Shown piece after piece: positions 1 to 58,199 of a stretch of DNA of 64,000 bases; the first letter of the stretch is position 1, and every line of letters starts with the position of its first letter. A program made the position numbers and the translations under genes. Origin of the DNA: Ruditapes philippinarum (Eukaryota); contig NW_026851538.1 in assembly GCF_026571515.1 (NCBI RefSeq), positions 86,164 to 150,163 on the forward strand, in the 5' to 3' direction. A model generated the notes under the pieces. The model saw only the letters and a list, made by a program, of their open reading frames with translations, had not been told where the DNA came from and ran no database searches.

Positions 1-207
1 TGCGTTTGCGACCAGCATGGATCCAGACTAGCCTGCGCATCCGCGCAGTCTGATCAGGATCCATGCTGTTCGCTATCAGTTTCTCAACTTGTTAAAGGGT
101 TTGTAAGCGAACAGCATGGATCCTGATCAGACTGTGCGGATGCGCAGGCTGGTCTGGATCCATGCTGCTCGCAAACGCAATATTATGGTTTTGTCGTGAC
201 GCGGCTC
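1..207 (+). mobile_element. Nested-palindrome MITE, copy 1 (left ~30 bp cut by the window edge)
   Basis: Consensus arms ...gcgaccagcatggatccagaccagcctgcgcatccgcgcagtctgatcaggatccatgctgttcgc, then loop tatcagtttctcaacttgttaaagggtttgtaag, then the inverse arm ending gttttgtcgtgacgcggctc. Right flank atat. Confidence 0.8.
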
Positions 208-4373: not shown

Positions 4374-4595
4374 TTTTTCCTTATCATGAATGTGGCTATA
4401 GGAGGAACGGGTTTCTTCCCCGATAAATTTGTCAGTCCTACGGGAAAACCATGGCAAGATAAATCTGAATTCACAGCACGTGATTTCTGGAACGCACGTG
4501 GTCAATGGTACCCAACATGGAACGCGGACAAAAATAACGGAGAAGATGCCGCTATGCAAGTTGATTACATCCGAGTTTGGAAGCTTAAACCATAA
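4374..4595 (+). CDS. GH16 endo-1,3-beta-glucanase terminal exon; FFLIMNVAIGGTGFFPD...MQVDYIRVWKLKP stop
   Basis: Acceptor tgtttcag|TTT in phase 0 with the previous exon (FDQE|FFLIMNVAIGG). The C-terminal GH16 signature is present (NVAIGG..FFPD ... VDYIRVW). Stop TAA at 4593-4595. AATAAA at ~4651. Confidence 0.8.
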   Translation, partial: FFLIMNVAIGGTGFFPDKFVSPTGKPWQDKSEFTARDFWNARGQWYPTWNADKNNGEDAAMQVDYIRVWKLKP

Positions 4596-4887: not shown

Positions 4888-5400
4888 TTTTTGGGGAAAA
4901 TTACTCACTGAACACAACATTTACCAGGAACATTACTCAATGTACACAGCATTTACCAGGAACATTACTCACTGAACACAACATTTACCAGGAACATTAC
5001 TCACTGAACACAACATTTACCAGGAACATTACTCACTGAACACAACATTTACCAGGAACATTACTCACTGAACACCACATTTACCAGGAACATTACTCAC
5101 CGAACACAACATTTACCAGGAACATTACTCACTGAACACAACATTTACCAGGAACATTACTCACTGAACACCACATTTACCAGGAACATTACTCAATGAA
5201 CACAACATTTACGCGGAACATTACTCACTGAACGCAACATTTACCATGAACATTACGCAATGAACACAACATTTACCATGATCATTACTCACTGAACACA
5301 ACATTTACCAGGGACATTACTCACTGAACACAACATTTACCAGGGACATTACTCACTGAAAACAACATTTACTAGAAAATTTACTCACTGAACACATTAA
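4888..5400. repeat. 32-bp minisatellite x ~15 (acatttaccaggaacattactcactgaacaca)
   Basis: Direct reading, period 32. Degenerates toward 5400. Confidence 0.9.
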
Positions 5401-6149
5401 CCAGGAAAATTACTCACTGATCATTAACTCGAATCGTGACAGTTACAAACTGATCACAATTCAGATCTAAATACCACTCACACTCTGAGCATCATGTCTC
5501 GTATTATAAACTGAGCACCTCTCACGTCCGAGGATCAGTTCCATTGTTGATTATAATCCTCTCGCTAGGAATATTTATGAAAAAAATACTTTGACCATGG
5601 TTGTTCATTATCAGCTGCGGACGTCACAAGGTGGGATCATCGGATCATTGCGTTGAAACCAGTTTGGTTAACACCTTTGGTCAGTGTTAGGACGTGTAAA
5701 TCTGATAAATAATAATCTTAGCTGTTCAAAAAAAAAGTTAACAACATGTTTCAAAGGTCTTTTTGGAACTTTTGATCAGTATATAATGAAAAAGATAATA
5801 ATTTTCTTCACTTACTAATGGAAATGTATTTGGATAAATCGTGTAACCAATGCAGTAAGGTGCGTTTTGTATAGAGTGCGGGCATAAATAAGACAACTGT
5901 TTGTAGACAAAACATTTTTATATTGTGTGGAAGTTACGTAGAAAATTTAAAGTAGAATTTAAGACGGTAACATATCTTTTTACTTCTTTTTTTTTGTGAA
6001 AGAAAATTATTTTAATTTTAATAAAAGCCTCAAGAGTACGAATAATATCTACGGCTGTAAGATTTATGGTGTTTGTGCACCAGTAGAAAATATTAAGATT
6101 GAGAAGATGAAGAGAAAAACCTAATAAGCAACACAAAAACAAGGTACAT

Positions 6150-8197: not shown

Positions 8198-9601
8198 GTT
8201 TAGTTGGGAATTAACCTGTTAACTTTTTTGTATTTTATCAATTCAATTCAATTCTTTTATTCATTAAAACACATTTTTATACGAATATTAGCAAAAGAAT
8301 AACAAGAACTTTGATATCAAAATCTAACAATTACGAGTACAATAGGAAAAGATTAATAACGAGTTTTTTTAGCAATTTTCACGATTTTATATCTTCACGG
8401 GACACCTGTCATTAGGAGCCGGATATAAACAAACATAAACAAACTGTTTCTAAAGAATTTATCATCTAATTTAATCTCTTTTGCACAGAAGGTATTTCGT
8501 CTCAAAATGATAATTTAACAGTTATGGAAATTGTTTTGTCTTTCTTTTCATACAGCATTAACTCAAGGACCTGTCAAGTATCACTGTATTCGGATATATC
8601 ATTATCAGATAGTCGAAATAGTAAAAAGCTAAATGCAACTGTAGCCTGCTATTTAACATGTACTTTTCCTTTAATAGAAAAGCCTCTACTGTACAGCTTC
8701 CAATAGATGTGTGGCGTTGGTTAGTGAGTGAAAACTTGGTTGGTTTTGCTTTAAGTTACAATAGAAAAATTAATCAATTAGTTCCTAATGATCAAGCTTT
8801 CTACAGTTCTAGTTAATTCCTGACAGCCATTTACAAAGGTCATGTTGACAATTTTCACAGGAGAGCTTTTTTCCAGCTTGTCATTTTTGAATGGGAGGGT
8901 TTTTATCAGGGAAGGGTTTTGTCCATTTTTCGGACAAACTAGAGATCTTTTTTTGATAAATCTTAAAATATGTACAAATTAGCAACAGGATAAACTGTGA
9001 TCAGACAGATGGATGTGGCTGTTGATCTTGGTCTACACATTTACCACTATCAGATAAAGTGCTAAGTAATTCATTAGAAGAGTCACAGTATTAATATTAT
9101 TCACCATGTCACCATTTCATTTTTGAATTTTGTGTAAACCTAGTTACTGACTCAGGATTGAACTTGAGACCTCTTGTTTACTAGGCGGATACTTAAGCAT
9201 GTTGCTTAAGCGTTGACCACTGTTGATATTTTAATTGCTACTAAACTAGAATAAGCTTAAAAATATATTATAAGTATTTGAAATCTTACACAGGCTGCCA
9301 GTACTGAATATCCTAGCAAGACTGCATCTGTTTACAGTAGTAATGAAGCTTCCTTTAAGTTTCTGTTTAAGATTTTACACACAGCTTGAAAATGAGATGA
9401 CAGCCAAAATGCAAAGTTTTTTCCTTATAAGAGGAGTTCTTTCTTGCACCATTGTCAACAAAATGCAAAAAAATAAGATATTACTATCTTTTAAATAATT
9501 GATATTTCTCTTGAACAAAATCTTATTCTTAACCCACTTACTGTCATAATTCTCTGTTCAGATTATTGAGATTCTGTCACTGATTTAAATGAAGTAGATT
9601 T

Positions 9602-9799
9602 GAGACATGCCATGACAAAACCAACATAATGGGTTTGCGACCAGCATGGATCCAGATCAGCCTGTGCATCCGCGCAATCTGACCAGGATCCATGCTGTTC
9701 GCTTACAACCCTATTTCAAGTAGAGAAACTGATGCGCAGGCTGGTCTGGATCCATGCTGGTCGCAAAGGCATTACGTTGGTTTTGTCATGATGCAGCTC
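9602..9799 (-). mobile_element. Nested-palindrome MITE, copy 2 (shorter variant)
   Basis: Terminal gagacatgccatgacaaaaccaacataatg ... cattacgttggttttgtcatgatgcagctc. Flanking direct repeat ATTT/ATTT. Lies 23 bp upstream of the KLHDC8-like ATG exon. Confidence 0.8.
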
Positions 9800-9821
9800 A
9801 TTTATCGTATTTCATTACAGG

Positions 9822-10047
9822 ATGGCTAGTAACGATGTGAATTGTGTGTTCAAGTCCGACTCTCTCAAGAAGATGGTCTACCCTCGTGTGTTCTCCAGCC
9901 CTGTTGTACATGAGAATAACATTTATGTAGTTGGTGGGTGTGATCAGATGGGTCAGCCTGTCGACAGCTTTGAAATGTACGACATCACAAAGAAAAAATG
10001 GACCACTTTACAAAATATGCCAACAAAGAGGGCAGCACCTGCTGTTG
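9822..10047 (+). CDS. KLHDC8-like kelch-repeat protein, exon 1 (blade 1); MASNDVNCVFKSDSLKKMVYPRVFSSPVVHENNIYVVGGCDQMGQPVDSFEMYDITKKKWTTLQNMPTKRAAPAV
   Basis: ATG at 9822 immediately after a cag acceptor, so an upstream noncoding exon is possible. Pattern W.F..MP..RVY...GGC..G.P.D..E.YD....W..L..MPT.RA.PAV matches the KLHDC8A/B N-terminus. Donor G|gtaggt, phase 1. Confidence 0.75.
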
Positions 10048-11015
10048 GTAGGTGTTTATTGTAAACAATCATGGCATATAAAATGATAATAACCTAAAGC
10101 TAAAATTTAGAAAATAAACAGGTAAGTTATTTAAATTCTTCCTGTTGAAGATTTTGTTTTGACTGTCCTAGTAGTATGGACTGAAATTACAAAATACAAG
10201 GTCTTTTTTTATCGAAAACTGCTGGTTCATCTTCATAGTACTAAAAGAAGGAGTTGCAACCATTTTGTAAGAAATTAACTTACTACATGTAAGAAATATG
10301 AATTTTTCTTTATTCATACCTTGTGAAGTAATTTGTAGGCTATATTTGAGTATTGGTAATACATTGTACACCCAGGGCCTTTTCTCCTACAATAGAAGAG
10401 GATACATAAGGTAAGATTCCCTTTAACAAAATTTCTTTCCCTCTAAATTTTCTTCTCTGCTAAGTAATATTCCCCTCTTTATGGGTCCTGCATCCATCTT
10501 CTAGTAAACAAAAAATCGCTGAATGTTTATCTATAGCTACCACTGGAACACTATTTAGGCAGCTCACTCCAGAAAACACTATGTAACTTCATGCTACTTT
10601 AGGATAATGGTATGGATACAGACATAGACATAGAGCCATGGTTTTTGCGAATAGGGACAGTTATTGTTTTTGTGTCATATGTTGAAACTTCACACTCTTG
10701 TTCTCTGTGATTATCTAACATAATAGGCACATGTCGCATAACTCTGTGTTACCTTTTTACTGTTATATATCCCTTTTCTTACTGTCAAGCACTGTGAATA
10801 ATTGAGCGTACAGTCTTATGGACAGCTCCTGTAAAGTTGCTATCGTTATTAACAACTTGTGAAATTAAAGTGGTAGTGGTTTGGAATCAAACTTCCGTTA
10901 CCACTGACTTTTTAGTTAAATACTGTTACATGTACCTCGAGACCTTTGGGCTTCTTTAATACTTAACAGAAGTAAAGCAACACCTAAGATATTTATAGAA
11001 TGTAATGTATTTCAG

Positions 11016-11168
11016 GGGTGGTTGGAGACAAGATAGTGGCTGTGGGAGGTGTTGGAGATTGTCAGCAACCTGTAGATGCTATAGAAATGTACAGTATAAA
11101 AGATAAAAAGTGGGAGAAAATGGACAACCTTCCTAGTGGACTTCTAGGCCTTTCATCAGTCTTGAAAG
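11016..11168 (+). CDS. KLHDC8-like exon 2 (blade 2); G VVGDKIVAVGGVGDCQQPVDAIEMYSIKDKKWEKMDNLPSGLLGLSSVLK
   Basis: Acceptor tttcag|GG and donor AAAG|gtaaat, phase 1 in and out. Kelch GG doublet and W present. Confidence 0.75.
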
Positions 11169-11176
11169 GTAAATTT

Positions 11177-11411
11177 GAGCCGTGCCATGATAAAACCAAC
11201 GTAATGCGTTTGCAACCAGCATGGATCCAGACCAGCCTGTGCATCCGCGCAGTCTGATCAGGATCCATGCTGTTAGCTTACAAACCCTATTACAAGTAGA
11301 GAAACTGATAGCGAACAGCATGGATCCTGATCAGACTGCGTGGATGCGCAAACTGGTCTGGATCCATGCTGGTGGCAAACGTATTATGTTGGTTTTGTCG
11401 TGATGCGGCTC
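11177..11411 (-). mobile_element. Nested-palindrome MITE, copy 3
   Basis: Full-length copy in KLHDC8-like intron 2, starting 9 bp after the exon-2 donor. Flanking ATTT/ATTT. Confidence 0.85.
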
Positions 11412-11928
11412 ATTTTATTGATTTTCTTTCAATACATAGGATTTTTTTTTATAAAACTTTAAACAATTGTTTCTGTATTCATAAAATTAATTCTTACTTA
11501 GTGATGTTAACTCATTTTGTATGACTCTGCATTAAAAGTGTATAACTTTTTAATATAAAACCCTTGTGACACATACATGTAGAATGTCAGAACCCATAAT
11601 TTTACGGGTGAAATGGAATGTCAAGTTGTAATTGTAAATTTAAATAAAATACTGGCCTTACATAATAGTTAAAGGTTGTCTGTCTCATTGTAGGACAAGT
11701 TTGATTGTTCAATCTCTTATCCTCATGAATTGGTTGAAAAGATATACTCTGCTTTGAATTTAGCCTTGAAAAGCATAGAACCTGGTCAAACTGCATGGAT
11801 ATACAGGCTGGCCTTGGGCTATAATGGTGGCAAAAGCCTTTCCACTTTCTACATGTTCTTACCGATTAAGGGCTTAATTAATTATACCATGTAAAACATA
11901 TAATAAAGGTGAAATGCATTATTAACAG

Positions 11929-12093
11929 ATGACAAGGTTCTGGTAATGGGAGGTATGGGTGTTGACACAAATCCGAATGATAGTTTCATGATGATAGATC
12001 TGGATGAAAATAAATGGAAGGGACTAAAACCTATGCCTACTGCCAGATATGCTACATTCTCTTTCATCATCAATGACAAACTATATGTTATTG
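11929..12093 (+). CDS. KLHDC8-like exon 3 (blade 3); DDKVLVMGGMGVDTNPNDSFMMIDLDENKWKGLKPMPTARYATFSFIINDKLYVI
   Basis: Acceptor attaacag|AT and donor ATTG|gtaagt, phase 1. Confidence 0.75.
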
Positions 12094-14245: not shown

Positions 14246-14338
14246 AGGAATGGAAGATTGGTAAAAACTTGAGCTCCCCTCGTGGCGACTTTGCTATCGG
14301 TGTAATAGAGGACAAGGTTATTTGTGCCGGAGGATTAG
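14246..14338 (+). CDS. KLHDC8-like exon 5 (blade 5); EEWKIGKNLSSPRGDFAIGVIEDKVICAGGL
   Basis: Acceptor t-run cacag|AG and donor TTAG|gtatgc, phase 1. Confidence 0.75.
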
Positions 14339-14855: not shown

Positions 14856-15112
14856 GTAATGATGGAAAACCTTTTGACACAGTGGAAATTTATAATCCAG
14901 AGACGGACACGTGGTCATTTGGTAAAAACATGTCATTGTCACATTGTTCTTGCGCGTACATAACACACCACGGGAAATTATATGTGATCGGGGGTCTCTC
15001 AGCTCAAGGTCCAACAAACTGTGTGGAATGTATAAGTTATGGGCCTTTAGACGATGATAGCAAAAGCAGGAAGACACAACCTGCTCGGGGAAAAAATAAA
15101 AAGCAATCTTAG
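14856..15112 (+). CDS. KLHDC8-like exon 6 (blade 6 plus C-terminal tail); GNDGKPFDTVEIYNPETDTWSFGKNMSLSHCSCAYITHHGKLYVIGGLSAQGPTNCVECISYGPLDDDSKSRKTQPARGKNKKQS stop
   Basis: Acceptor ctgttacag|GT, phase 1. Stop TAG at 15110-15112. Total CDS ~1101 nt (~366 aa), comparable to vertebrate KLHDC8A/B (~350 aa). Confidence 0.75.
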
Positions 15113-19069: not shown

Positions 19070-19125
19070 TAGTCGCCCCGGTGTCGGCGTCGGCGTCAGC
19101 GTCGGCGTCGGCGTCTGCGTTGGTT
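19070..19125. repeat. (GTCGGC)n microsatellite
   Basis: gtcggcgtcggcgtcagcgtcggcgtcggcgtctgcg. Confidence 0.85.
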
Positions 19126-19950
19126 AAAGTTTTTTGTAAAGTCAAATATCTCAATTATTACTTGAGATATTCAATTGAAACTTACAATACTTATTTATAG
19201 TAACAAGGTACATCAGATTGACAAGTTGGATAACTCTGCCTACAATATTGACAGAATTATGCCCCTTTTTAACTTAGAAATTTTGGTTAAAGTTTTTTGT
19301 AAAGTCAAATATCTCAACTATTGCTTGAGATATTCAATTGAAACTTACAATACTTATTTATAGTAACAAGGTACATCAGATTGACAAGTTGGATAACTCT
19401 GCCTACAATATTGACAGAATTATGCCCCTTTTTAACTTAGAAATTTTGGTTAAAGTTTTTTTATAAAGTCAAATATCTCAATTATTGCTTGAGATATTCA
19501 ATTGAAACTTACAATACTTTATTTATAGTAACAAGGTACATCAGATTGACAAGTTGGATAACTCTGCCTACAATATTGACAGAATTATGCCCCTTTTTAA
19601 CTTAGAAATTTTGGTTAAAGTTTTTTTGTAAAGTCAAATATCTCAATTATTGCTTGAGATATTCAATTGAAACTTACAATACTTATTTATAGTAACAAGG
19701 TACATCAGATTGACAAGTTGGATAACTCTGCCTACAATATTGACAGAATTATTGCCCCTTTGGAACTTAGAAATTTTGGTTAAAGTTTTTTTATAAAGTC
19801 AAATATCTCAATTATTGCTTGAGATATTCAATTGAAATTTAAAATACTTTTTTTATAGTAACAATGTACATCAGTTTGCAAAATTGCATAACTCTGTCTG
19901 CAAAATTTGCAGAATTATTTGCCCCTTTGAAAGTTAGAAATTTTGGTTAA
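19122..19950. repeat. ~163-bp tandem repeat x ~5
   Basis: The marker ggttaaagttttttgtaaagtcaaatatctcaa recurs at 19122, 19285, 19447, 19613, 19775. Confidence 0.85.
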
Positions 19951-20700
19951 AGGTTAAAGGTCTTCAAAGATATTTACTTGAAACTTTACACATGCACTTA
20001 GGGTCATAATTGGAGGGTCATAATTGTATGTCACTGACCAAGTTCCATAACTCTATCTTGCATTAAGGCTGATTCATATCCCCTTTTCTACTTAGTCTCT
20101 TGGTTAATGTTTACATGCAAGTTTTACATATCTCAATAACTATTAAAGATATTTATTTAAAACTTCACATATGCATTTAGGGTCATAATTGTAGGTCACT
20201 GACAAAGATCCATAATTCTATCTTGCATTTAGGCTGATTTTTCTCCCCTTTTTCAACTTAGAAATTCATGGTAAAGTTTTGCTTGTAAGCTGTTATCTCA
20301 ATAACTACTGAAGGGTTTGTGCCTTTTTTGGGACAATTTTATGCATTCATAATAATAAAGCAGTGATTTACTTGATAAAACATCTTAATAACAAGCCTTT
20401 GTACCTTTTCTGTCAAATTTATGTAGGGTCATAATTGTAGGTCACTGACAAAGATCCATAATTCTATCTTGCATTTAGGCTGATTTTTCTCCCCTTTTTC
20501 AACTTAGAAATTCATGGTAAAGTTTTGCTTGTAAGCTGTTATCTCAATAACTACTGAAGGGTTTGTGCCTTTTTTGGGACAATTTTATGCATTCATAATA
20601 ATAAAGCAGTGATTTACTTGATAAAACATCTTAATAACAAGCCTTTGTACCTTTTCTGTCAAATTTATGTATTCATAGGTAATTAGTATTATTATACTCA
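19950..20700. repeat. ~255-bp tandem repeat x ~2.7, related to the preceding array (shared ccccttttt-aacttagaaatt motif)
   Basis: 20175-20430 and 20435-20690 are near-identical. 19990-20170 is a diverged unit. Confidence 0.8.
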
Positions 20701-22985: not shown

Positions 22986-24215
22986 AGCTCACCTGTCACA
23001 AAGTGACAGGGTGAGCTTTTGTGATCGCTTTTCGTCCGGCATCCGTCCGGCATCCGTCGGTCCGTCCGTAAACTTTTACTTTAAATGACATCTCCTCATA
23101 AACCACTAGGCCAATTTCATCCAAACTTCAGAGGAATGTTCCTTTGGTGGTCACCTTTAAAAAATGTTCAAAGAATTTAATTCCATGCAGAACTCTGGTT
23201 ACCATGGCAACCGAAAGAAAAAACTTTAAATATCTTCTTTTAAAAAACCCAAAGAGCTAGAGCTTAGATTTTTGGCATGAAACATCTTCTAGTGAGTGTC
23301 TACCAAGTTTGTTCAAATAAAAGCCCTGGGGTCAAAATTGGCCCCGCCCCAGGGGGTCATTGATTTTCCCTATATGCATATAGTAAAAACTTAAAAAATC
23401 TTCTTTTAAAGAACCTAAAGAGCTAGAGCTAAGATATTTAGAATGAAACATCTTCTAATGAGTGTCTACCAAGTTTGTTCAAATAAAAGCCCTGGGGTAT
23501 AAATTGGCCCCACCCCAGGGGGTCATTGATTTTCCCTATATGCATATAGTAAAAAATCTTCTTTTAAAGAACGCAAAGAGGTAGAGCTAAGATATTTAGC
23601 ATGAAACATGTTCTAATGGGTGTCTACAAAGTTTGTTCAAATAAAAGCCCTGGGGTCAAAATGGGCCCCGCCCCTGGGGGTCATTGATTTTCCTTATATG
23701 TGTATAGCAAAAACTTAAAAAATCTTCTATGAAAAAACCCAAATAGCTAGCGTTAAGATATTAAGCATGAAACATCTTCTAGTGAGTGTCTACAAAGTTT
23801 GTTCAAATAAAAGCCCTGGGGTCAAAATTGGCCCCGCTCTGGGGGTCATTGATTTTCCTTATATGTGTATGGCAAAAACTTAAAAATCTTCTTTGAAAAA
23901 ACCCAAATAGCTAGAATTTAGATATTAAGCATGAAACATCTTCTAGTAAGTATCTACAAAGTTTGCTCAAATAAAAGACCTGGGGTCAAAACTGGCCCCG
24001 CCCCAGAGGTGTCATTGTTTTTAATTATATGTGTATAGTAAAAACTTAAATAATCTTCTTTTAAAAAACCCAATGAGCTAGAGGTAAGATGTTTAACATG
24101 AAACATCTTCTTGTGGGTGTCTTCCAAGTTTGTTCAAATAAAAGCCCTTGGGTTAAAATTGGCCCTGCTGGGGGGGCCTTTATACAGGTGAGCGACCTTA
24201 GGGCCCTCTTGTTTA
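22986..24215 (+). mobile_element. Composite hairpin-headed element carrying a ~165-bp satellite array (Helentron-like), copy A
   Basis: Head agctcacctgtcacaaagtgacagggtgagct (perfect hairpin), then a (ccgtccg)n-like stretch and a ~200-bp unique part. Then 6 tandem units of ~160-165 bp (marker gtttgttcaaataaaagccctggggtcaaaattggccccgcccc at 23309, 23472, 23630, 23798, 23957, 24127). Tail caggtgagcgacc..gggccctcttg. Confidence 0.65.
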
Positions 24216-25479: not shown

Positions 25480-25725
25480 GAGCCGTTTGCAACCAGCATG
25501 GATCCAGACCAGCCTGCGCATCCGCGCAGTCTGGATCAGGATCCATGCTGTTCGCTTACCGCGCAGTCTGATCAGGATCCATGCTGTTCGCTTACAAACC
25601 CTATAACAAGTAGAGAAACTGATAGCGAACAGCATGGATCCTGATCAGACTGCGCGGATGCGCAGGCTGGTCTGGATCAATGCTGGTCGCAAACCCATAA
25701 TGTTGGTTTTGTCCTGACACGGCTC
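25480..25725 (-). mobile_element. Nested-palindrome MITE, copy 4 (left TIR partly deleted, internal 40-bp duplication)
   Basis: Flanking AAAT/AAAT. Internal duplication cgcgcagtctg(g)atcaggatccatgctgttcgcttac x2. Abuts a copy of the ~360-bp dispersed repeat. Confidence 0.8.
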
Positions 25726-25789: not shown

Positions 25790-26900
25790 ATAACTTTACA
25801 GTGAGTAAGGAACAGTTATAACATATAAGTAATTATATGGTATACAATGTTTCATACACATGAGAACTTTATGGGACAGACATTACAAACACATGATAAC
25901 TGTTGTGCACAGACCGTTTTGAGCACATATATACAAATGTAGTAACTTTTTGGTACAGAACATTTCAAACACATAGTTTCTGTGTTTGACAAAACATTTT
26001 GAACACATAGAAATTGTGTTGGAAAAAAGATTTAAAACAGATAGTTAAGTTAGTGTTTTGGACAAAACATTTTGAACACATAGTAACTGTGGGGAACAAA
26101 ACATTTTGAACACATGGTTACTGTGTGGAACAAAACATTTTGAACACATGTAATTGTGTGGAATAAAACATTTTGAATACATAGTTACTGTGTTGGACAA
26201 AACATTTAAACACAGCATTTTGAACACATAGTAACTTTGTGGAACAAAACATTTTGAAATCAAAGTAACTGTGTGGAAAAAATATTTTAAACACGAAGTA
26301 ACTTTGTTGGACAAAACACGTTTTGAACACATAATAACTGTGTGAAACAAAACAATTTGAACACATAATTATTGTGTGGAACAAAAATTTGAACACATAG
26401 TAACTTTGTGGACAAAACATTCTGAACACATAGTAATTATGTTGGACAACACATTTTGAACACATAGTAACTGTGTGGAACAGAACATTTTGAACACATA
26501 GTAACTTTGTTGGACAAAACACCTTTTGAACACTTAGTAACCTATTGGACAAACCATTTGAAACACCTAGTTACTGTACAGAACAAAACATTTTGAACAC
26601 ATAGTTACTGTGCAGAACAAAATATTTTGAACACATAGTGACTGTATGGGACAAAACATGTAGTTATGTTGGGGACACATTTTAAAGATATGTCTGATAC
26701 AGGACAGTGAAAACACATAGGAACTGTGTAGAATAGAATTCTTTGAACACAGACTAACTGTTTTGTAGAGATTTTTTGAACACATAGTGTATATGTAGTA
26801 TAGAACCTTTTGAACTCATAGTAACTGTATTGATAACCTTTTAAACTCACTTATAGTAACTATTAAAAGCAAATTGTTACTATGTGGTTCAGAACATATC
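25790..26900. repeat. ~36-bp minisatellite x ~30 (aacattttgaacacatagtaactgtgtggaacaa)
   Basis: Direct reading. It generates the artefactual Cys-rich ORFs 26045-26850 (-). Confidence 0.9.
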
Positions 26901-27079: not shown

Positions 27080-28385
27080 AGCTCACCTGTCACAAAGTGA
27101 CATGGTGAGCTTTTGTGATCGCTTTTCGTCCGGCGTCCATCCGTCCGTAGACTTTTACTTTAAATGACATCTCCTCATAAACCACATAGCTAATTTCATC
27201 CAAACTTCACAGGAATGTTCTTTTGGTAGTCAACTTTAAAAATTGTTCAAAGAATTTAATTCCAAGCAGAACTCTGGTTGCCATGGCAACCGAAAGAAAA
27301 AACTTAAAATATCTTCTTTTAGAAAACTGCAAGAGCTAGAGCTAAAATATTTGGCATGAAACATCACCTAGTCATAGTCTACCAAGTTTGTTCAAATAAA
27401 TGCCCTGGGTTCAAAATTGGCCCCGCCCCAGGGGGTCATTGATTTTCCTTATTTGTATATAGGAAAAACTTAAAAAATCTTCTTCTAAAAATCCCCAAAT
27501 AGCTAGAGCTTAAATATTCAGCATGAAACATCTTCTAGTAGGTGTCTACCAAGTTTGTTCAAATAAATGCCCTGGGGTCAAAATTGGCCCCGCCCCAGGG
27601 GGTCATTGATTTTCCTTATTTGCATGAAGTAAAAACTTAAAATATTTTCTCTTAGAAAACCGCAAGAGCTAGAGGTTAAATATTTAGCATGAAACATCAA
27701 CTTTTCAGTGTCTACCAAGTTTGTTCAAATAAATGCCCTGGGGTCAAAATTGGTCCCGCCGGGGGGGGGGGGGGTCATTGGTTTTCCTTATTTTATATAT
27801 AGTAAAAACTTAAAAAATCTTCTTTTAAAAACCCCATATAGCTAGAGCTTAAATATTAAGCATGAAACATCTTTCAGTGGGTGTCTACCAAGTTTGTTCA
27901 AATAAATGCCCTGGGGTGAAAATTGGCCCAACCCTGGGGGGTCATTGATTTTCCTTATTTGCATATAGTAAAAACTTAAAATATTTTCTTTTAGAAAAAC
28001 GCAAGAGCTTAGATATTTGGCATGAAACATCACATAGTCAATGTCTACCAAGTTTGTTGAAATAAATGCCCTGGGATCAAAATTGACCCCACCCTGAGGC
28101 GTTATTTTCTAGTTAGCGTCTTCCAAGTTTGTTTAAATAAAAGCCCTGGGGTCAAAATTGGCCCCTCGAGTGGGGGTCATTGTTTTTTCCTATATGTGTG
28201 TAGTAAAAACTTTAAAAAAAATCTTCTTTTTAAAACCCCAAAGAGTTAGATATTTATCATGAAACATCTTCTAATCGCTGTCTACCAAGTTTGTTCAAAC
28301 AAAAGTCCCTGGTTTAAAATTGGCATTGGCTCAGGGGGCTATATACAGGTGAGCGATTTCAGGGCCATCATGACCCTCTTGTTTT
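27080..28385 (+). mobile_element. Composite hairpin-headed element with ~170-bp satellite array, copy B
   Basis: Same head (agctcacctgtcacaaagtgacatggtgagct) and same tail (caggtgagcgatttcagggccatcatgaccctcttg). About 7 tandem units, with a G14 run at ~27762. Confidence 0.65.
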
Positions 28386-35249: not shown

Positions 35250-35428
35250 GTGTGTTCGTGATTGTCGGGTTCGTTGTTTATGCCAGTGAATTTAACAAGG
35301 AAAATCAAACTGCAGTCCATTTAAGTGGCGCATTTTATTTGGCTGTCTTATCAGCTGTCCTGGCGTTCGTTGCGGCAAGCCTGTTTGTCATTTCGAGAAG
35401 GTCCGCTGGAGGGTATAACACAATTTAG
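35250..35428 (+). CDS. Claudin-like copy A, exon 3 (TM4 plus tail); GVFVIVGFVVYASEFNKENQTAVHLSGAFYLAVLSAVLAFVAASLFVISRRSAGGYNTI stop
   Basis: Acceptor tttttccaaatcag|G. Stop TAG at 35426-35428. Total ~178 aa, typical for PMP22/EMP/claudin-like proteins. Confidence 0.7.
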
Positions 35429-35753: not shown

Positions 35754-35974
35754 GAGCCGCGTCACGACAAAACCAACATAATGCGTTTGCTTCCAGCATG
35801 GATCCAGACCAGCCTGCGCATCCGCGCAGTCTGATCAGGATTCATGCTGTTCGCTGTCAGTTTCTCTACTTGTTATAGGGTTTGTAAGCGAACAGCATGG
35901 ATCCTGATCAGATGGCTGGTCTGGACCCATGCTGGTCGCAAACCCATTATGTTGATTTTGTCGTGACGCAGCTC
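35754..35974 (+). mobile_element. Nested-palindrome MITE, copy 5 (reference copy)
   Basis: gagccgcgtcacgacaaaaccaacataatgcgtttgc...loop gtcagtttctctacttgttatagggtttgtaag...cccattatgttgattttgtcgtgacgcagctc. Flanking AAAT/AAAT. 326 bp downstream of the claudin-like A stop. Confidence 0.85.
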
Positions 35975-40761: not shown

Positions 40762-40931
40762 AGCATCCGCGCAGTCTGATCAGGATCAATGCTGTCCGCT
40801 ATCCGTTTCTCTACTTAAAATAGGGTTTGAAAGCAAACAGCATGGATCCTGATCAGACTGCGCGGATGCGCAGGCTGGTCTGGATCCATGCTAGTCGCAA
40901 ACCCACTATGTTGGTTTTGTCATGACGCGGC
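40762..40931 (+). mobile_element. Nested-palindrome MITE, copy 6 (5'-truncated)
   Basis: Starts inside the left arm (catccgcgcagtctgatcagg). The right arm is complete. Confidence 0.7.
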
Positions 40932-42387
40932 ACATATATACTTCTCGTTCAACGCAGCAGAAAGATGAGTAAACATAAAGTGTTCGCTTGTCAAACTGGT
41001 GCACTTTCATATAGCATGTAGATTTCCCACAGTGAATGTAGAAAACTACCACCATATATCACTGTTGTACAGCGTCCACCGGATATAGCCTCTAAAAACA
41101 CAGAAAACGAAAGTAGAAAGCTGCACAACGAGTACACCATTTAATTTGCAAACAAAAGCAAATATTGCTCTAAAACTAGAAACATTTAGCTTCACAAAAT
41201 TGTTTAGTTTGGAAAAATCGATGAAGTTATGATGAAGAAATAAGTTAAAACATTACCTCGGGTGTACTCGGTGTGCAGCTTTCTACTTTCGTTTTCTGTG
41301 TTTTTAGGGGCTATAACTGGTGGACGCTGTACAACAGTGTATATGACGTAATTGGCAATTTGTATAAAGTATAGTACCAGCGTATTTAGGACGGATGCCT
41401 TATATGCCATTAAACGTTGCTGTTGTTGCTGTTTGTACATTAAATATACTTTGGTCATTTGTAAGTTTGGGTTTTGAAAATAATACTAGAAAATAAAGTT
41501 ATCTGTACAAATATTCTAGAGCATGGTTTGTCAAACCATATACAGTCAATCTTGTATTAAGAGACCGCTCAAGGGTGAGGTCAAAAGTGGTCTCTTAATA
41601 AAACGGTCTCTAATGCAAAACTAGGTTTTCCAACCAAATTTCACGGGTCATAGCATGTACAAATATCAATTAAACATAAGCAGGAAATGAAACAGTTTAA
41701 TAGTTTAATATTTTTATTATCATATATTCCAACATTCCTTCAAAATTCAGACATTTACATATAATAGATATGATATGAATTACTAAATTTATTACTTTAT
41801 TTTAATAACCTATTTTACTGAGTCAACATCAAACAATAAAGCTACAATAATAAGTTGGTTTTTTTTTCTACAAGAATAACATTTTCTACAATGTTTTGGT
41901 TGGTCATTTCAACACATTGGCATTGTGATTAATGTAGCACTATCCTATGTTTCTAACTTTTAACACATTTCATGGTAACCACCTCTTTACCTGAAAAAAG
42001 TCACTAATCTTTGATTACTTTGTATCAACCTCAGCTCTAAAACTCACAAAACTGTCCCGTAAAGTCATTATGCTTTCAAGCCATTTGTCTTGACCTTTGC
42101 TCAATGCTAATTCTTTCAATTTATACAACATCTCATTTGCATCACTCATACTAAAAATGTCCCAGTAACAGTGTTCAAGTCAAATGTTGGAACTGCTTTA
42201 TCAAATATGTACATATATAACAAAAACTTTGAAAACTGATTTCCATGCTTCATACATTCGTTGATTTTCAGACAAAACTATCAATGACTTCTTGAAAATT
42301 TTCAGTTCTGTAGTCCCACAGACTTACTCCAACTGGGAGATAAGTAAGAAGAGTGCACACTCTTCTAGGTCCAAATCATATAATTAT

Positions 42388-42530
42388 GAGCCGCGTCACG
42401 ACAAAACCAACACAGTGCGTTTGCGATCAGCATGGATCCAGACCAGCCTGCGCATCCGCGCAGTCTGATCAGGATCCATGCTGTTCGTTATCAGTTTCTC
42501 TACTTGTAATAGGGTTGGTAAGCGAACAGC
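42388..42530 (+). mobile_element. Nested-palindrome MITE, copy 7 (left arm plus loop only)
   Basis: gagccgcgtcacgacaaaaccaacacagtgcgtttgcgatcagc...loop...gcgaacagca, then unrelated sequence. Confidence 0.7.
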
Positions 42531-43173
42531 AATGGAGCCATACCACGAGATAAGAAAACATACTTACTAATCACTGTATTACTGAGCGTCCGGTTTTGTT
42601 ACATCGTTCTCTTGAGAAGTATTGTACCCAAGAAGAGTGTTAAAGTAAAGCTTGTTAAGTTGTTTTGAAGAATTATCTTCAGTGACCTTGTCTGAAATTG
42701 GAGCTTTAGATGTATTTTCAGAAATTTCTTTGGAACTGATGATTTTGCATAATCTTCGTCTCCCTAATACTTTCTCTTCACGATCCAATGGATGCGTAAC
42801 TTGATGGAATTATATACCCCCTTTTCAATGTGGAAAATGTTGAATATGTTACCAATATGGCCATGTTACAGCATTTAAGAAACAGACTTTCCTTTCCACA
42901 TATAAATAACCATCATTTAGGTTTACAATAATGATGACTTGTTATTTTGTTTCCCCTTAAGATCTCTATAACGCCCTCTAATATTACGTCACATAAAATT
43001 GTGTTCAGGTGAGCTAGACATAAACCAAATTAAAAGAAAATTATGATATTTGATATTTATAAAACTTTTATTATATACAATAAAAAAACAAACAACGTAC
43101 AGTTGTTTTTACACGCATAAAAAATATGCTTTGTTCCAATAATGAGACATTTTAAACTAATGAGGACATAATT

Positions 43174-43407
43174 GAGCCGTGTCACGACAAAACCAACATA
43201 ATGGGGTTGCAACCGGGATGGATTCAGACCAGCCTGCGCATCCGCGCAGTCTGATCAGAATCCATGCTGTTCGCTTAAGACCCTATAACAAGTAAAGAAA
43301 CTAATAGCGAAAAGCATGGATCCTGATCAGACTGCACGGATGCGCAGGCTGGTCTGGATCCATGCTGGTCGCAAACCCATTATGTTGATTTTGTCGTGAC
43401 ACGGCTC
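43174..43407 (-). mobile_element. Nested-palindrome MITE, copy 8
   Basis: Full-length, somewhat more diverged (ggggttgcaaccgggatggattcagacc). Flanks aatt/atat. 150 bp upstream of the LINE fragment. Confidence 0.8.
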
Positions 43408-43559: not shown

Positions 43560-45645
43560 ACTAATTAATGTAGTACTTTGCCTCATCATTTCCTACTGAA
43601 GAGTGGTCATTTAGTTGCAAAATAAGCATAATGTGTCGAAGAACACTGCATCAAATGACTTTGGCAATGACCAGGCTTCTGTTGACTTAGATCAGTTTAA
43701 TTTTAATAGTGTTGATGAAATAGAGAATGAACACTTTGATAGCATGATAACTATTGATGAGGTACTGAAATGTATTTTACATGCAAAGTCTGGTAAAGCA
43801 CCGGGTTATGACAATATACCATGTGAACTACTAAAAATGATTCTGCGTTAGCTTTGCTACATAGTCTTTTTAATAGATGTTTTTTAAGTGGTTCTGTTAC
43901 TACTGCATGGTCTGAGAGTATAATTTCACCAGTTCCCAAGTCTTCAACCACAGACCCACGGGATCCTTTGTCATACAGGGGTATTTCTTTGGCTCCATCC
44001 ATGTATAAAATATACTGCTCTGTTTTAAATAATAGATTAGTAAAATGGACAGCTAGTAATAATATTATAAGTGATGAGCAAAATGGTTTTATAAAAGGTA
44101 AAAGTACAATTGACCAAGTACAGTCCCTAACAAATATTATTGAAACACGTAAACTTAAAAAGTTACAAACATTTACTGCTTTTATAGATTTCAGGAAGGC
44201 GTATGACCTTATAGACCGTACATCACTGTGGCAAAAGTTGCACCAGCAGGTGGGGATAGGGGGCAGACTGTTTCAGGCAATTTCATCATTATATAAAGAT
44301 GTTTAAGTGCTGTATACGCTTAAATGGATTTGATACACCTTGGTTTGATGTAAAATGTGGATTGAAACAAGGCTGCCCCCTGTCTCCAATGCTGTTTAAC
44401 TTGTATATTAATGATTTAGTAATGTATATGAATAATTTAGACAAAGGTGTTTATATTGGTGAAAGAAAAATATGTATTTTGCTATATGCTGATGACATAG
44501 TTTTGTTGGCAGAAAAGGCCAAAGATCTTCAATCCATGTTAGATGCTTTAGCTTTATGGTGTTGTCAAAATAAAATGACTGTCAATTGTGATAAATCCAA
44601 TATTGTTCACTTTAGAGCCGACAGTATTTCTAAAACTGAACATGTTTTTGAATTCAATTCAGAAAAACTGGAAATTGTTCATAGTTATAAGTATCTTGGT
44701 GTCGTACTAAATGAATTTTTGGATTATAATGAAATTGCAAAGACAGTTGCAATGTCTGCCTCTAGAGCACTTGGTCTTGTTATATCCAAAAGTAAGGCAT
44801 TTGGTGGTTTTCAGTACTCAACATTTACAAAACTTTATGATTCAATGGTATGGCCCATAATTAATTACAGTGCCCCGATTTGGGGTGATAGATCTTACTC
44901 GTGCATTAATGCAGTTCATCATAGGGCAATGCGTTACTACTTGGGTGTTGGAAGATACACCCCGAATGTGGCTGTAAGTGGAGAGATGGGTTGGAAACCA
45001 CCAATTGTTAGACAGTGGGTGTCTGTATTTAGACAGTATTTTAGAGTTATGAATATGGATGATAATAGAATTAATAAATCTGTATTTATGTGGTCTAAAG
45101 CAAGTAATGTCAAGAATGGTTTTTACCGACTTAAGAAACTTTTAAAAGATATTAATAGTAGTCACATACTAGAGGCTAATATCGGAAATGCCAAACCTAC
45201 CATATCAATGCTAGAATCTAAACTTATGGAAATAGCAACAAATAAATGGAAGTTATTACTTCAGAGAGAAAATGCCATTAGAGGAAATGGCGGGAATAAA
45301 TTAAGGACTTACAGGAAGTTTAAATCTCAGTTCTGCACTGAAAAGTACCTTACGTCTAAGTTGCCATTTATGTATAGATCAGCCTTTACAAAATTCAGAT
45401 GTGGTATAGCACCACTAAGAATAGAAACAGGTCGTAATGAAAATATTAATGTAATAAATAGAAAATGTTTTAATTGTCCGGACACTGCAGAAGATGAGAA
45501 ACATGTATTACTTTACTGTCCATTATATAATGATGTAAGGAAAGAGTTGGTCTCTGCGTTAGATGATGTATTAAGAAATAGAGATACTAGTATTGTATCT
45601 GATGATGACAAAATGGTTAAAATTTTAGTAGTAAAAACCTAGTAT
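43560..45645 (+). mobile_element. 5'-truncated, frameshifted LINE ORF2 (reverse transcriptase plus CCHC-like C-terminus)
   Basis: Three consecutive ORFs (43615-43851, 43854-44306, 44299-45642) in frames 1/0/1 carry RT motifs: GYDNIPCELLK, PVPKS...RGISLAPSMYKIY, FIDFRKAYDLIDR, GLKQGCPLSPMLFNLYINDL, LLYADDIVLL, and a C-terminal CFNCPDTAEDEKHVLLYCPLY. The first shift sits in an A5 run (~43835). The second is near 44295. No endonuclease domain is present. Confidence 0.7.
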
Positions 45646-47952
45646 ATTTATCTGCCAAAGCCTGCCACCATATTCTGTTTGAGAGAAAAAGAAAATTGTA
45701 CTGTAAATCATGATTCTTTTATATGTTTTTATGGAGTACCGTTTTAACCAATATGTAAATAATGGTAAGTAACATTTTAGATAGATTTTATGGTTTTAGA
45801 AACATATTCAAGAAGTAGGTTCCAATAAGTAGACGTGATAAAAATTCCTTATTTAAGATTTTTGTATTTTCTTTTTTTATATATTGATATAGGATATCGC
45901 TCTAATGCGCAATATTGAGCTTTGCCTTTATTTTAGTCATGAGTATTTGGTTGGAGGCTGCTTCTTGAATTGAACCATTGCAACAGATACAGTTGTATTA
46001 ACATACAAATGGGTCTTATGATACTATAGGACTGCGATGTCTAGTCATGAATAAATCACACTTTCTTGTTTATTGCTTTACACCCAATATTATTACTATT
46101 TAGGTAAAACACACATACACATTATATCAAGGGTATAGTGTTTGGATGAACATTCGGATGTGTGTAGGATCTGCATATATCTGGACGTTTCTCGGAACAC
46201 TGTAAACTTGTACACTGCTGTAACATTCAAATCTTACAACCAGCAATAACAACACAAACTACACAGAATTTCAACTAAAATAAATACAGTCTGGTTGTCT
46301 CAACTCTTCACATTATTTTTATTTTTATTTGTTTGTTTTTTTGTTTGTTTTTTTTTTGTTTTGTTTTTTTTTAAAGAAGAAAAAATACTTGGTTTTATTT
46401 TTAAGTAACTTTGAAGATATGTCCAGTATGTTAGATTTGTTGTAAAGTTATGTATAGTCTCTTATAACTCATCTATGAGTGGCATTTATGTACAATGTCG
46501 TAGGTTTTATATTTGTATTATTTTAATATTGTACATGATGATGAGACTTTAATAAACTATCTTATCTTATCTCTTATCTTATGTCTTTAGGAATTAACTG
46601 ATCAGTACGTTAATATTGCTAGAAATTTTAAAGGAGCCCAAATATGGTTCAGGTAATTGGCCAATGAGTAAATGTTTGGATACTATAAAGGTACACCAAA
46701 ATTAAATAGCTTTTGAGAAATAAAGATAAAAGCACTTCTGAGGCATAATGGGCCTTTAAGTGAGAAAAGACGTCTTTTAATGAAACAGTCATGGTTTTTA
46801 GTTGATATTGGTTTACTTTTATACACCTGTCGTACATATTGACGTAATAGAGCATAACGGAAAGGTATGTAAACGACGTATACTCGTGATTCGATTAGTC
46901 ACGGGATAATTTTAAATTACCTAGCATCAACAACTAAGTTAAGGTATGTTAAATTTGTTTATGATTTATTAAAGAATATCTAGACATGTGTTTGTAGGTT
47001 AATAATGTAACAGATTAATGTTTAAATATTCGATTTTTTTCTATATTCACTGATATTTAGCCTTTTCCAAAATCGTTCAATAAGGAAGTGTTGCGAAATC
47101 TGTAACGGTAAGCTTTTCGTTCATCGTTATAAAGCAGAGCTAAGCAGAACTGTCTTCAGTTGATACTGAGATTTCATGTATTTATTCATTATGACTTTGA
47201 ACTAACTTTGACATTTGAAATTGATCTTTTTGACCTACATGTATACGAGAACGAAAGTTGAAGATTTTTGTGAACCCCTTTTGTTCTTTTCTGTTGGTTT
47301 TCTTTTAATCACAGGTTTAGTTGCAATAGAAAACATTCTTTTACATGTTTGTTAAATAATTGTTGACTTATCATATATATTGACTAATTATAATAATTGT
47401 AATTGTACACTACAAAAGTATGTCATCGTTCAAACCGTTGTATACACCTTGGAAAGTAAACAGGTATAAATTCATGTACATATGTTAAACGTTTTACTTA
47501 AAGCAAACAGAACATCAGATGATACTTAACATAAAGCTCATATATAATATAAAGCGCAACCAAAATCTTAACCCTGTAATATTACGTGTTTATTTTGCTT
47601 TAGTAAACATCTGTGCTACCAGAGTATTTTTGCTAATTAGTATTAAATTCATTTTACAACGGAGTTCAGTTCATATTTAAATACATTAAGAATTTAATGT
47701 TGTCATGTAGCTTTGATTATAACTGAAGTTTAAAACTGTACATGTGTACAGGTAAACATGAATATACATACAGTGACACCTGTGAACAAAGGCCACTTTT
47801 ATCGATGAATAGTTACCAAAAAGTAGCCTTTATTTGCAGAGTTATCGTTATTCAGAGGTGACTTTTAACCCAAATTTGACTGTGCATATATCGATAAATA
47901 GTCATATTCGTTACAAATAGATAAAGTATAATAATTTCCTTTACAGGTAAAC

Positions 47953-48157
47953 ATGAGTAAACTGTTGGTTTGCGGCGTTCTCATGTGTTTGTTTGCTGCT
48001 ATTCTCAGTATAATAAGCACGGCGATTCCGTATTGGCTTCACGTGCATGGTAGTGTCCTTGGACAGGAGGGCACCCTAAATATTGGCCTCTGGCAGACAT
48101 GTTTGAAATATAAAACGTCATTTGCTAGCGGAACGAAATGTGGAGATACGGGAATAG
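47953..48157 (+). CDS. Claudin/PMP22-superfamily 4-TM protein, copy B, exon 1; MSKLLVCGVLMCLFAAILSIISTAIPYWLHVHGSVLGQEGTLNIGLWQTCLKYKTSFASGTKCGDTGI
   Basis: ATG at 47953 right after a tttacag acceptor-like site, so an upstream noncoding exon is possible. W...GLW..C...C signature. Donor AG|gtatct, phase 1. Paralogous to copy A. Confidence 0.7.
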
Positions 48158-48169
48158 GTATCTAGAAAT

Positions 48170-48309
48170 GAGCGCTTATCAACTCTATTACAAGTAGAGA
48201 AACTGATAGCGAACAGCATGTATCCTGATCAGACTGGGCGGATGCGCAGGCTGGTCTGGATCAAAGCTGGTCGCAAACCCATTATGCTGGTTTTGTCGTG
48301 ACACGGCTC
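48170..48309 (-). mobile_element. Nested-palindrome MITE, copy 9 (internally deleted: left terminus gagcgc joined to loop plus right arm)
   Basis: Flanking AAAT/AAAT despite the internal deletion. Begins 13 bp after the exon-1 donor of claudin-like B. Confidence 0.7.
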
Positions 48310-56033: not shown

Positions 56034-56723
56034 TCAATTGTTTCTCCTTATCTTCATTACAGATTTCTTGAGCGAGTAATGAACCCAGCATTTTGTCCAA
56101 GTTATGCCCATATTTGTCTCTAAACCATTGGTGTGTGGGTACAATCCATTTAGATTACTATAATAACAATCATTGTACCACCAAGCTCCGCTAAACTGCA
56201 CTGCACAATTAGCGTAGGCGCGTTGGTCATTATCACTGTCTTTTGTTGTGAATTGACTATTGTTATGAAACAACATGGAATCGCCACACGAGCCGCCATA
56301 TCCTCCAACCGACAATTCTGTATTTATCACTCTCATCCTTAATTACTGAAGGTGGAATATTCAGCATAGGCAGAAACCGGATTACGATTGTCAATTTCAA
56401 ACGTTTCCAAGCATACATAGAGTGAACTGTCGGCAATCGTCAAATAGTATATCTGTTCAAGTCCGAGCCAATACTCGCTACTCCTGTTCCCGAAATCCAT
56501 TCTTGTAGTCTTCCCAGTTTCTGTAGAAATCTTCTGATCCGTCTTGTCGGCGTTGAATAACCGTCCATCCACCATTGGTCATATCACACCATACATCAGT
56601 AGCAGTACTTCCAGTTGGTTTGATCACATAAACACCGTCTTCGGTATAGCCTTGTTGAAAAAACGCAAGACAGTCAACTGGCTCGGGTTGCTTGTGAACT
56701 CTTTTTACTTTTTGACTGCCTTC
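56034..56723 (-). pseudogene. Fibrinogen-related domain (FBG/FReD) exon with at least 2 frameshifts; EGSQKVKRVHKQPEPVDCLAFFQQGYTEDGVYVIKPTGSTATDVWCDMTNGGWTVIQRRQDGSEDFYRNWEDYKNGF / FGNRSSEYWLGLEQIYYLT... / ...GGYGGSCGDSMLFHNNSQFTTKDSDNDQRAYANCAVQFSGAWWYNDCYYSNLNGLYPH...
   Basis: Three overlapping minus-strand ORFs in three different frames (56478-56765, 56339-56575, 56034-56336) together spell a canonical fibrinogen C-terminal domain (GGWTVIQRR.DGS.DF.R.W..YK.GFG; EYWLGL; NCA...G.WWY..C..SNLNG.Y). The YKNGF to GNRSSEYW junction needs a 1-nt removal (ggatttCgggaac). A second shift plus an in-frame TAA lies near 56336-56345. There is no room for introns. Confidence 0.55.
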
Positions 56724-57964: not shown

Positions 57965-58199
57965 GAGCCGTGTCACGACAAAACCAACATAATGGTTTTG
58001 CGATAAGCATGGATCCAGACCAGCCTGCGCATCCGCACAGTCTGATCAGGATCCATGCTGTTCGCTTACAAACCCTATAACAAGTAGAAAAACTGATAGC
58101 GAACAGCATGGATCCTGATGAGACTGCGCGGATGCGCATGCTGGTCTGGATACATGCTGGTCGCAAACGCATTACGTTGGTTTTGTCGTGACGCGGCTC
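57965..58199 (-). mobile_element. Nested-palindrome MITE, copy 10
   Basis: Full-length, flanking ATAT/ATAT. ~370 bp upstream (in gene orientation) of the FReD N-terminal exon. Confidence 0.85.

Follow-up and report, generated by a model that had tools for sequence, protein, structure and literature searches.

The DNA analysed here, referred to below as the window, is a stretch of 64,000 nt from Ruditapes philippinarum (assembly GCF_026571515.1, contig NW_026851538.1, positions 86,164 to 150,163 of the forward strand). It is AT-rich animal DNA with a GC content of about 32%, in which we recognised a KLHDC8-like gene, two claudin-like genes (A and B), a FReD gene and a LINE-like retrotransposon. 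The closest relatives of the window genes are found in bivalve molluscs, and Pfam confirmed the Kelch, PMP22/claudin, Fibrinogen_C and LINE reverse transcriptase domains. A blastn search with positions 9602–9822 as query revealed ten copies of one short repeat in the window (Table 1). This repeat is a MITE (miniature inverted-repeat transposable element): it has terminal inverted repeats (TIRs), a target site duplication (TSD) of fixed length, a size below 800 bp and many homogeneous copies. About one fifth of the copies examined, in the window and in independent contigs, lie within 8–21 nt of an exon, on the intron side of its edge and mostly at the first usable target past the 5' splice site.

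Table 1 Copies of the MITE and neighbouring features in the window.
Feature	Position	Strand	Remarks
MITE copy 1	1–207	-	cut by window start; right flank ATAT (208–211); 95% identical to consensus
MITE copy 2	9602–9799	+	36-bp internal deletion; TSD ATTT at 9598–9601 / 9800–9803
MITE copy 3	11177–11411	+	full length, sense; TSD ATTT at 11173–11176 / 11412–11415
MITE copy 4	25480–25725	+	5' internal deletion and 36-bp tandem duplication inside the element; TSD AAAT; no neighbouring exon
MITE copy 5	35754–35974	-	TSD AAAT; left flank CAG/GTAAAAC 19 nt upstream, meaning unverified
MITE copy 6	40763–40933	-	left side truncated; right flank ATAT
MITE copy 7	42388–42539	-	right side truncated; upstream of the LINE-like reverse transcriptase open reading frame
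MITE copy 8	43174–43407	+	full length; imperfect flanks AATT/ATAT; ~200 nt upstream of the reverse transcriptase open reading frame
MITE copy 9	48170–48309	+	left arm deleted, terminal GAGC kept; TSD AAAT at 48166–48169 / 48310–48313
MITE copy 10	57965–58199	+	full length; TSD ATAT
KLHDC8-like, putative 5' untranslated exon	8420–8491	+	would end at donor AAG/GTATTT
Spacer from copy 2 to exon	9800–9820	+	21 nt, ATTTATCGTATTTCATTACAG; TSD copy, short pyrimidine-rich stretch, cag acceptor
KLHDC8-like, first coding exon	9821–10047	+	ATG at 9822; donor GTAGGT at 10048
KLHDC8-like, exon 2	11016–11168	+	donor GTAAATTT, copy 3 directly after
Claudin-like B, exon 1	47947–48157	+	ATG at 47953; phase-1 donor G/GTATCT; start approximate
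LINE-like retrotransposon	43615–45639	+	460-aa uninterrupted open reading frame, RVT_1; copies 6, 7 and 8 within 3 kb upstream

Alignment of the copies gave a consensus of 235 bp (GAGCCG...CGGCTC) with GAGCCGTGTCACGACAAAACCAAC at its left and GTTGGTTTTGTCGTGACGCGGCTC at its right end; GAGCCGCGTCACGACAAAACC represents the end sequence expected to bound any autonomous partner. The element forms a single long palindrome with a 33-nt loop at its centre, each arm being a hairpin in itself, and in copy 2 the inverted arms measure 60 nt and are 92% complementary. It has no coding capacity, the consensus containing stops in each of the six frames. RNA folding of the consensus yielded −219.6 kcal/mol compared with −71.6 kcal/mol for shuffled sequences (z = −29.5), and the regions of copies 2 and 3 reached z = −10.4 and −20.8, in line with the strongly structured palindrome described in the initial annotation. 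No known structured RNA was recognised when the whole window was searched with the Rfam covariance models at gathering score, and a literature search with sequence strings of the element returned only BamHI-site primers. The loop lies in plus orientation in copies 2, 3, 4, 8, 9 and 10 and in minus orientation in copies 1, 5, 6 and 7. As the copies diverge from the consensus by 3–10% (90–97% identity; Kimura two-parameter distance 0.03–0.11), the amplification of the family indicates an old rather than a current burst; marks of decay include deletions (copies 2, 4 and 9) and CpG transitions. The antisense reading of the loop (e.g. window 35840–35880) is TATCAGTTTCTCTACTTGTTATAG/GGTTTGTAAGC, a pyrimidine tract with AG followed by a GTAAG donor-like site, and transcription in that direction could make it serve as a cryptic exon.

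Taking GAGCC/GGCTC as element ends, perfect 4-bp TSDs were present in 12 of 17 two-ended copies, all of the form A[AT][AT]T (AWWT), namely ATAT in five, AAAT in four and ATTT in three cases. Matching flanks arise only with a 4-bp duplication at these boundaries, which bears out the AT-rich 4-bp targets proposed earlier. Around the TSDs no target motif extending beyond AWWT was detected, and the flanks did not differ from random AWWT sites in GC content or GC asymmetry.

The exon boundaries of the KLHDC8-like gene were supported by splice signals, protein alignment and the mRNA-like contig of a relative, to which each exon showed 70–78% identity. Best matches reached 74% for a transcript and 60–62% otherwise in the search table, and 62–66% in the alignment with Potamilus and Mya. 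In addition to exon 2 and the first coding exon, which starts at 9821/9822, boundaries were fixed for the exons at 11929–12093, 14246–14338 and 14856–15112; exon 4 begins at 13304 and has an approximate 3' end (a trial end at 13499 breaks the frame). Positions 8420–8452 match the 5' untranslated region of the relative's mRNA at 27 of 33 nt (E = 4e-4) and are followed by the donor at 8491. Copy 2 thus likely occupies the 3' end of an intron in the 5' untranslated region, and the cag at 9818–9820 is a plausible acceptor for the ATG exon, as the initial annotation had assumed.

The five distances to genes reported in that annotation were reproduced within 1–5 nt. With copy 2 ending at 9799, the spacer to the KLHDC8-like coding exon measures 21 nt and that to its ATG 22 nt (23 in the annotation). 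Copy 3 follows the end of exon 2 at 11168 after the 8 nt GTAAATTT and therefore starts at intron position +9, while copy 9 follows claudin-like B exon 1 after the 12 nt GTATCTAGAAAT past 48157 and starts at +13. The two remaining copies are not unusually near exons: copy 5 lies 325 nt past the claudin-like A stop codon at 35426–35428 (326 in the annotation) and copy 10 about 375 nt upstream of an exon of the FReD gene, which is encoded on the minus strand (about 370 in the annotation). Described as the N-terminal exon, the latter carries no ATG and may not be the first coding exon.

To place these distances in context, a permutation was performed in which ten elements were distributed randomly over the 3,485 non-exonic AWWT sites of the window and compared with 20 exons. 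Only 1.9% of these sites are situated within 25 nt of an exon. The third-smallest gap was at most 21 nt with a probability of 4e-4, and three or more copies fell within 25 nt with one of 8e-4; unannotated exons would raise these values several-fold. A statistic summing the logarithms of all distances gave P = 0.02, and seven of the ten copies have no known exon within 300 nt. In the window, the first intronic AWWT ends at a median distance of 16 nt from the exon end. Three of the four donor-side copies described here and below (copy 9 and those on contigs L001 and L032) occupy the first AWWT of their intron, with no other AWWT in the spacer, and copy 3 uses the last one in a series of three overlapping AWWTs (+3 to +8), i.e. 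within the first AWWT cluster.

Further copies were traced through open reading frame (ORF) fragments in a protein collection, after which the respective contigs were retrieved. At least 496 ORFs matched a translated fragment of the element, nearly all of them from JGI metagenome 3300049158 and at least one from an ENA assembly. The metagenome copies are just as near to the window consensus as the copies of the window itself, so these contigs evidently represent host DNA from the same species or a close one. Scans of other collections, all without host DNA, were uninformative: the terminal pattern gave no hits in metagenome contigs and the internal pattern nine bacterial contigs with a single hit each, while genome contigs returned ten chance hits and viral contigs none. 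As an independent sample we took the longest contigs, with length as the sole criterion, which provided 13 further copies. On contig L001 the element lies 14 nt past the donor of a Xan_ur_permease exon, which ends in ...CCTGTCTTAG and is followed by GTAAGACCACATAT and the element start GAGCCG; on L032 it lies 16 nt past the donor of a Hexokinase_2 exon (...CAGACCAAG, then GTACCAGTATTCAAAT and GAGCCG). Both exons were confirmed by Pfam alone (E = 6e-6 and 2e-6, respectively). Nine of the 13 further copies have no recognisable exon nearby, and one (L014a) adjoins an unverified donor-like motif only.

Taken together, four of the 23 copies sampled without bias (10 from the window and 13 further ones) start 8–16 nt after a verified donor. 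If 0.5–1% of non-exonic sites are taken to fall within 16 nt of a donor, a rough binomial estimate for four or more such copies gives P ~1e-5 to 1e-4. On the acceptor side we observed copy 2 at 21 nt, a copy 14 nt before an HDAC-like exon (L029) and another 32 nt before an HD-domain exon (L030). The latter two had been picked for ORFs fused to annotated domains and were left out of the statistics as biased, so that the unbiased set contains four donor-side copies and one acceptor-side copy. A search with a 78-aa profile revealed two more ORFs reading from an exon into the MITE, one with calmodulin (spacer of ~57 nt) and one with a weak Kelch hit (~12 nt), which were likewise not counted, as the gene caller's length limits bias this sample. 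Overall, the closeness to exon edges noted in the initial annotation is genuine, departs from randomness and recurs in independent contigs, whereas proximity to promoters is not the common denominator: other exon-edge copies sit deep within genes, at profile position 341 of 389 in Xan_ur_permease and 214 of 242 in Hexokinase_2.

Three side observations concern these contigs. Contig L032 (positions 1–77 and 155–297) has another MITE copy, truncated by the end of the contig, which stops 77 nt short of the preceding hexokinase exon's acceptor; two copies thereby bracket two consecutive exons of one gene. The copy at 1960–2194 of L026 equals that at 868–1102 of L027, a single insertion with identical flanks in the JGI and ENA assemblies, which implies that the host species was sampled twice and carried the insertion both times. 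Contigs with several copies share one loop orientation (two copies each on L012 and L014, three on L026), while the window is mixed; a bias in orientation within genes may be the cause.

With regard to the superfamily, the 4-bp AWWT duplication points to a non-autonomous cut-and-paste element of the Sola type, an assignment made from the TSD. AWWT is the hallmark of Sola1 transposons (PMC3845634), and Sola2-type elements also duplicate AT-rich 4-bp AWWT targets (ATAT, AAAT, ATTT; PMC3627910). Sola elements have been recorded in bivalves among the molluscs (PMC10294476), and the Repbase rule for Sola asks for termini that can be aligned over positions 1–11 with a classified Sola element (PMC4455052). 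The Sola1_NA MITEs of Bombyx mori and Rhodnius prolixus and Sola2-type elements resemble our element in the AWWT 4-bp TSD, the presence of TIRs, a size of a few hundred bp, the lack of coding sequence and a high copy number. The Sola1_NA TIR given there, GGACCGTTTATTTTG (PMC3845634), matches the termini only weakly: a loose likeness of the first bases (GGACCG in Sola1_NA, GAGCCG here) is followed by no homology past these few bases. In addition, short TIRs surround unique sequence in the Sola1_NA elements, whereas here the whole element is palindromic with nested hairpins. Term searches in the accessible text of PMC3845634 and PMC3627910 found no mention of an exon-edge preference of Sola elements. 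The window revealed no DNA transposase ORF, RVT_1 being the sole transposon protein domain that Pfam found in eight ORFs or exon sets. Other superfamilies were rejected: piggyBac and Kolobok, as the TTAA duplication occurs in none of the copies; PIF/Harbinger (Tourist-like), as a 3-bp TWA duplication does not fit flanks that match only at 4 bp; and Ginger2, whose 4-bp target is TATA (PMC3845634), as the TSDs include AAAT and ATTT but never TATA.

We favour, with moderate confidence, an explanation in which the MITE has an integration bias towards exon edges and is subsequently shaped by selection, the remaining insertions being tolerated. A transposase encoded elsewhere would move the gene-less element, integrating it at A[AT][AT]T and duplicating this site. 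Integration would be biased towards exons or their borders, for which the likeliest cue would be chromatin, either the nucleosome on the exon or the accessible DNA beside it. A preference for nucleosome-linker DNA is shared by many DNA transposons, introners among them (PMC9860276), and an exon-positioned nucleosome is therefore a plausible cue. Selection would then purge insertions within exons and most of those within 20–50 nt upstream of an acceptor, while copies just past a donor would survive, since a donor would need only about 6 nt of intron. In mammals, about 6 bp of intron are required at the donor and 20–50 bp at the acceptor (PMC3088655). The same selective filter would yield the 4:1 ratio of donor-side to acceptor-side copies. 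Tolerance would be favoured by the duplication mechanism, which may spare the bases of the splice site, and by the palindrome, which upon transcription would fold on itself and rejoin the flanks. In the neighbouring genes the reading frames are intact and the exon junctions conserved, in agreement with insertions that are near-neutral and tolerated. The copies beside the KLHDC8-like and claudin-like B exons are thus probably passengers rather than regulators, a reading that fits better because of the open frames, the conserved junctions, the occurrence of the family at unrelated housekeeping exons and its neutral-like decay. More tentatively, and in our view with less than even chances, integration may recognise exons or exon-intron junctions as such and hit the first AWWT outside the exon; candidate cues include an exon-positioned nucleosome, an exon-associated histone mark and a cue coupled to transcription or splicing. 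No description of a splice-junction-proximal target preference of a eukaryotic cut-and-paste transposon was found in the searchable papers.

Several points weigh against the proposed integration bias. The sample is small, with 23 copies and four donor-proximal ones; exon annotation of the window is incomplete and the metagenome contigs come without an exon-density figure. Insertion bias is not separable from differential retention on sequence alone. The nominal enrichment of TAAAAC and AGGTAA in the flanks, described below, leaves a sequence component of target choice possible. Copy 9, which lacks one arm and forms no long hairpin, is tolerated 12 nt from a donor all the same. The Sola identity, moreover, has the TSD as its single basis, and the Pfam scan of the eight window ORFs or exon sets yielded no autonomous Sola element with matching ends.

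The simplest alternative is chance combined with selective attention, MITEs landing anywhere in AT-rich non-coding DNA and some of them near something. The 25-nt threshold was indeed set post hoc, the sum-of-log-distance statistic is only modest, and most copies in the window as well as in the further sample, where one more lies 77 nt before an acceptor, have no exon in close range. We nevertheless accord this explanation only a small probability, since the permutation values for three copies within 21–25 nt are low and a sample chosen by length independently added two donor-proximal copies at Pfam-verified exons, bringing the binomial estimate to the range given above. Quite unlikely, in our assessment, is a mimicry of sequence, in which integration would prefer AWWT after a GTAA- or GTAAAAC-like motif and donors (AG/GTAAGT) would be hit as a by-product. 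In the 26-nt flanks, read towards the element, TAAAAC occurs six times compared with 0.69 expected, AGGTAA four times (0.25) and GTAA 13 times (5.3), and the TIR itself contains ACAAAACCAAC; however, no k-mer survives correction for 1,323 tests, and the distance from motif to TSD ranges between 6 and 19 nt, a variation incompatible with a preference in DNA binding. Furthermore, of 116 AGGTA sites in the window 64 have an AWWT no more than 20 nt away, and annotated donors account for only five of these 64, whereas two of the three AGGTA-adjacent window copies lie at true donors (P = 0.017), as do those of L001 and L032. The acceptor-side copies (copy 2, L029 and L030) would be left unexplained. 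A model of the donor bias based solely on AGGTA or on mimicry of the 5' splice site is therefore unlikely. As a separate observation, TAAAAC is present in six of 39 flanks, often as GTAAAAC 4–15 nt before the TSD, and resembles the TIR motif ACAAAACC. If insertion were uniform instead, exon-adjacent copies could merely persist longer, either because their deletion would damage the splice site or because the hairpin is mildly beneficial, masking cryptic sites or aiding exon definition. The age of the copies (3–10% diverged) would have left time for selection and DNA loss, all four verified donor-proximal copies carry the sense loop, and the antisense loop TTTCTCTACTTGTTATAG/GGTTTGTAAGC, as read from its sequence, resembles an acceptor followed by a donor. 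Together, the sense orientation and the splice-like antisense loop hint at selection at the RNA level, with n = 4. We still consider differential retention unlikely: a deletion shadow should spread the excess broadly, across tens to hundreds of nt, rather than lead to occupation of the first AWWT, exon-edge copies are no older than others, and four of four copies in one orientation correspond to only P = 0.125.

Two further alternatives ascribe a role to the element itself. The initial annotation had suggested that the copies could affect splicing, provide promoters or terminators, or nucleate silencing. Such a functional co-option, in which the KLHDC8-like, claudin-like and FReD genes would have their splicing modulated, their transcription started or terminated or their silencing nucleated by the copies, would agree with the positions near splice signals and a start codon, with the very stable structure, and with effects of MITEs on nearby genes, including via small RNAs, in other organisms (PMC5199201). 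On the other hand, Rfam returned no match, the copies decay in a neutral-like manner (deletions in copies 2, 4 and 9; CpG transitions), and the same family stands beside unrelated housekeeping exons (permease, hexokinase, HDAC, HD-domain); the latter therefore suggests a property of element integration and not gene-specific regulation, and we rate co-option as very unlikely. An introner-like origin, in which the element would have created the host introns by insertion into exons while supplying or recruiting splice sites, is scarcely credible. Introners are indeed MITE-like, with TIRs and TSDs of 3–9 bp (4 bp in some) and a location at intron ends (PMC9860276), and the present element lies 8–16 nt from donors. 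Yet the introns measure 760 nt (copy 3), 2,474 nt (copy 9) and ~1,329 nt (copy 2), 3–18 times longer than the respective elements of 235, 140 and 198 bp, and the splice sites lie outside element and TSD, with the donor 8–16 nt away. For copies 3 and 9 this origin was refuted, the intron being older than the element: the intron of copy 3 is found at the same place, after SSVLK/R, in the orthologue of Potamilus streckersoni, and claudin-like A has an intron at the same phase-1 position as claudin-like B without the element.

Gene-associated MITEs of plants (Tourist, Stowaway, mPing) as well as of insects and mosquitoes are likewise short palindromes enriched in or near genes, in introns and in flanks; their known preference extends over hundreds of bp to kb around genes, whereas here a subset sits at the first target, 8–16 nt from donors. 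Introners of algae, fungi and other aquatic eukaryotes share TIRs and TSDs, the non-autonomous nature and a location in genes near splice sites (PMC9860276), but make up virtually the whole intron with carried or recruited splice sites, while the introns considered here are older and longer and have their splice sites outside the element. In mammals, transposable elements are depleted near exons, and within 20 bp the donor side is favoured (PMC3088655). This donor-side asymmetry of the 'hazardous zones' described by Zhang, Romanish and Mager in 2011 (PMC3088655) is shared by the present family, which differs in being over-represented near exons where mammalian intronic elements are, overall, strongly under-represented.

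The element as such is an ordinary one of a known kind, a Sola-type MITE, and the unusual part is its accumulation at exon edges, observed in a small sample and contrary to the depletion that transposons commonly show close to splice sites. If a genome-wide excess were confirmed, the family would offer a system for studying how a DNA transposase reads exon-intron architecture, be it through chromatin or sequence, a gauge of how much structured insertion a splice site tolerates, and a model for how intron-generating transposons begin. Targeting of junctions, if true, would be a plausible stepping stone to introner-like behaviour. A practical bearing lies in gene prediction and the interpretation of intronic variants in bivalve genomes. 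Should the excess turn out to be an effect of the small sample, only routine repeat annotation would remain.

Further features of the window were noted in the course of the analysis. The Potamilus streckersoni orthologue (compared with L031 3001–3429) lacks intron 1 of the KLHDC8-like gene (10048–11015, after residue 75), its first coding exon being continuous there; judging from this comparison, the difference is a lineage-specific gain or loss unlinked to the MITE. The gene-poor stretch from the KLHDC8-like gene to claudin-like A contains satellite-like or transposon-borne tandem arrays with units of 165–167 bp at 19120–19952 (five copies, 95% identity), 23219–24176 and 27298–28094, the latter two with a related unit that starts with AAAAACTTAAAA. 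At 20178–20671 a 246-bp unit is present twice with 100% identity, which suggests a very recent duplication, and a 34-bp tandem array (also readable as 68, 103 or 137 bp) at 25948–26828, about 220 nt after copy 4, gives rise to spurious long ORFs on the minus strand. At 4895–5420 there are 16.5 repeats of a 32-bp unit (91% matches), just downstream of an exon at 4385–4595 which we take, by recognition, to be the last of a beta-glucan-binding/GH16-like gene, Pfam returning no match for it. Finally, the fibrinogen domain of the FReD gene (56342–56792, minus strand) is split over overlapping ORFs in different frames (56481–56578), which could mean that the gene has a very short intron, carries a frameshift or is a pseudogene.

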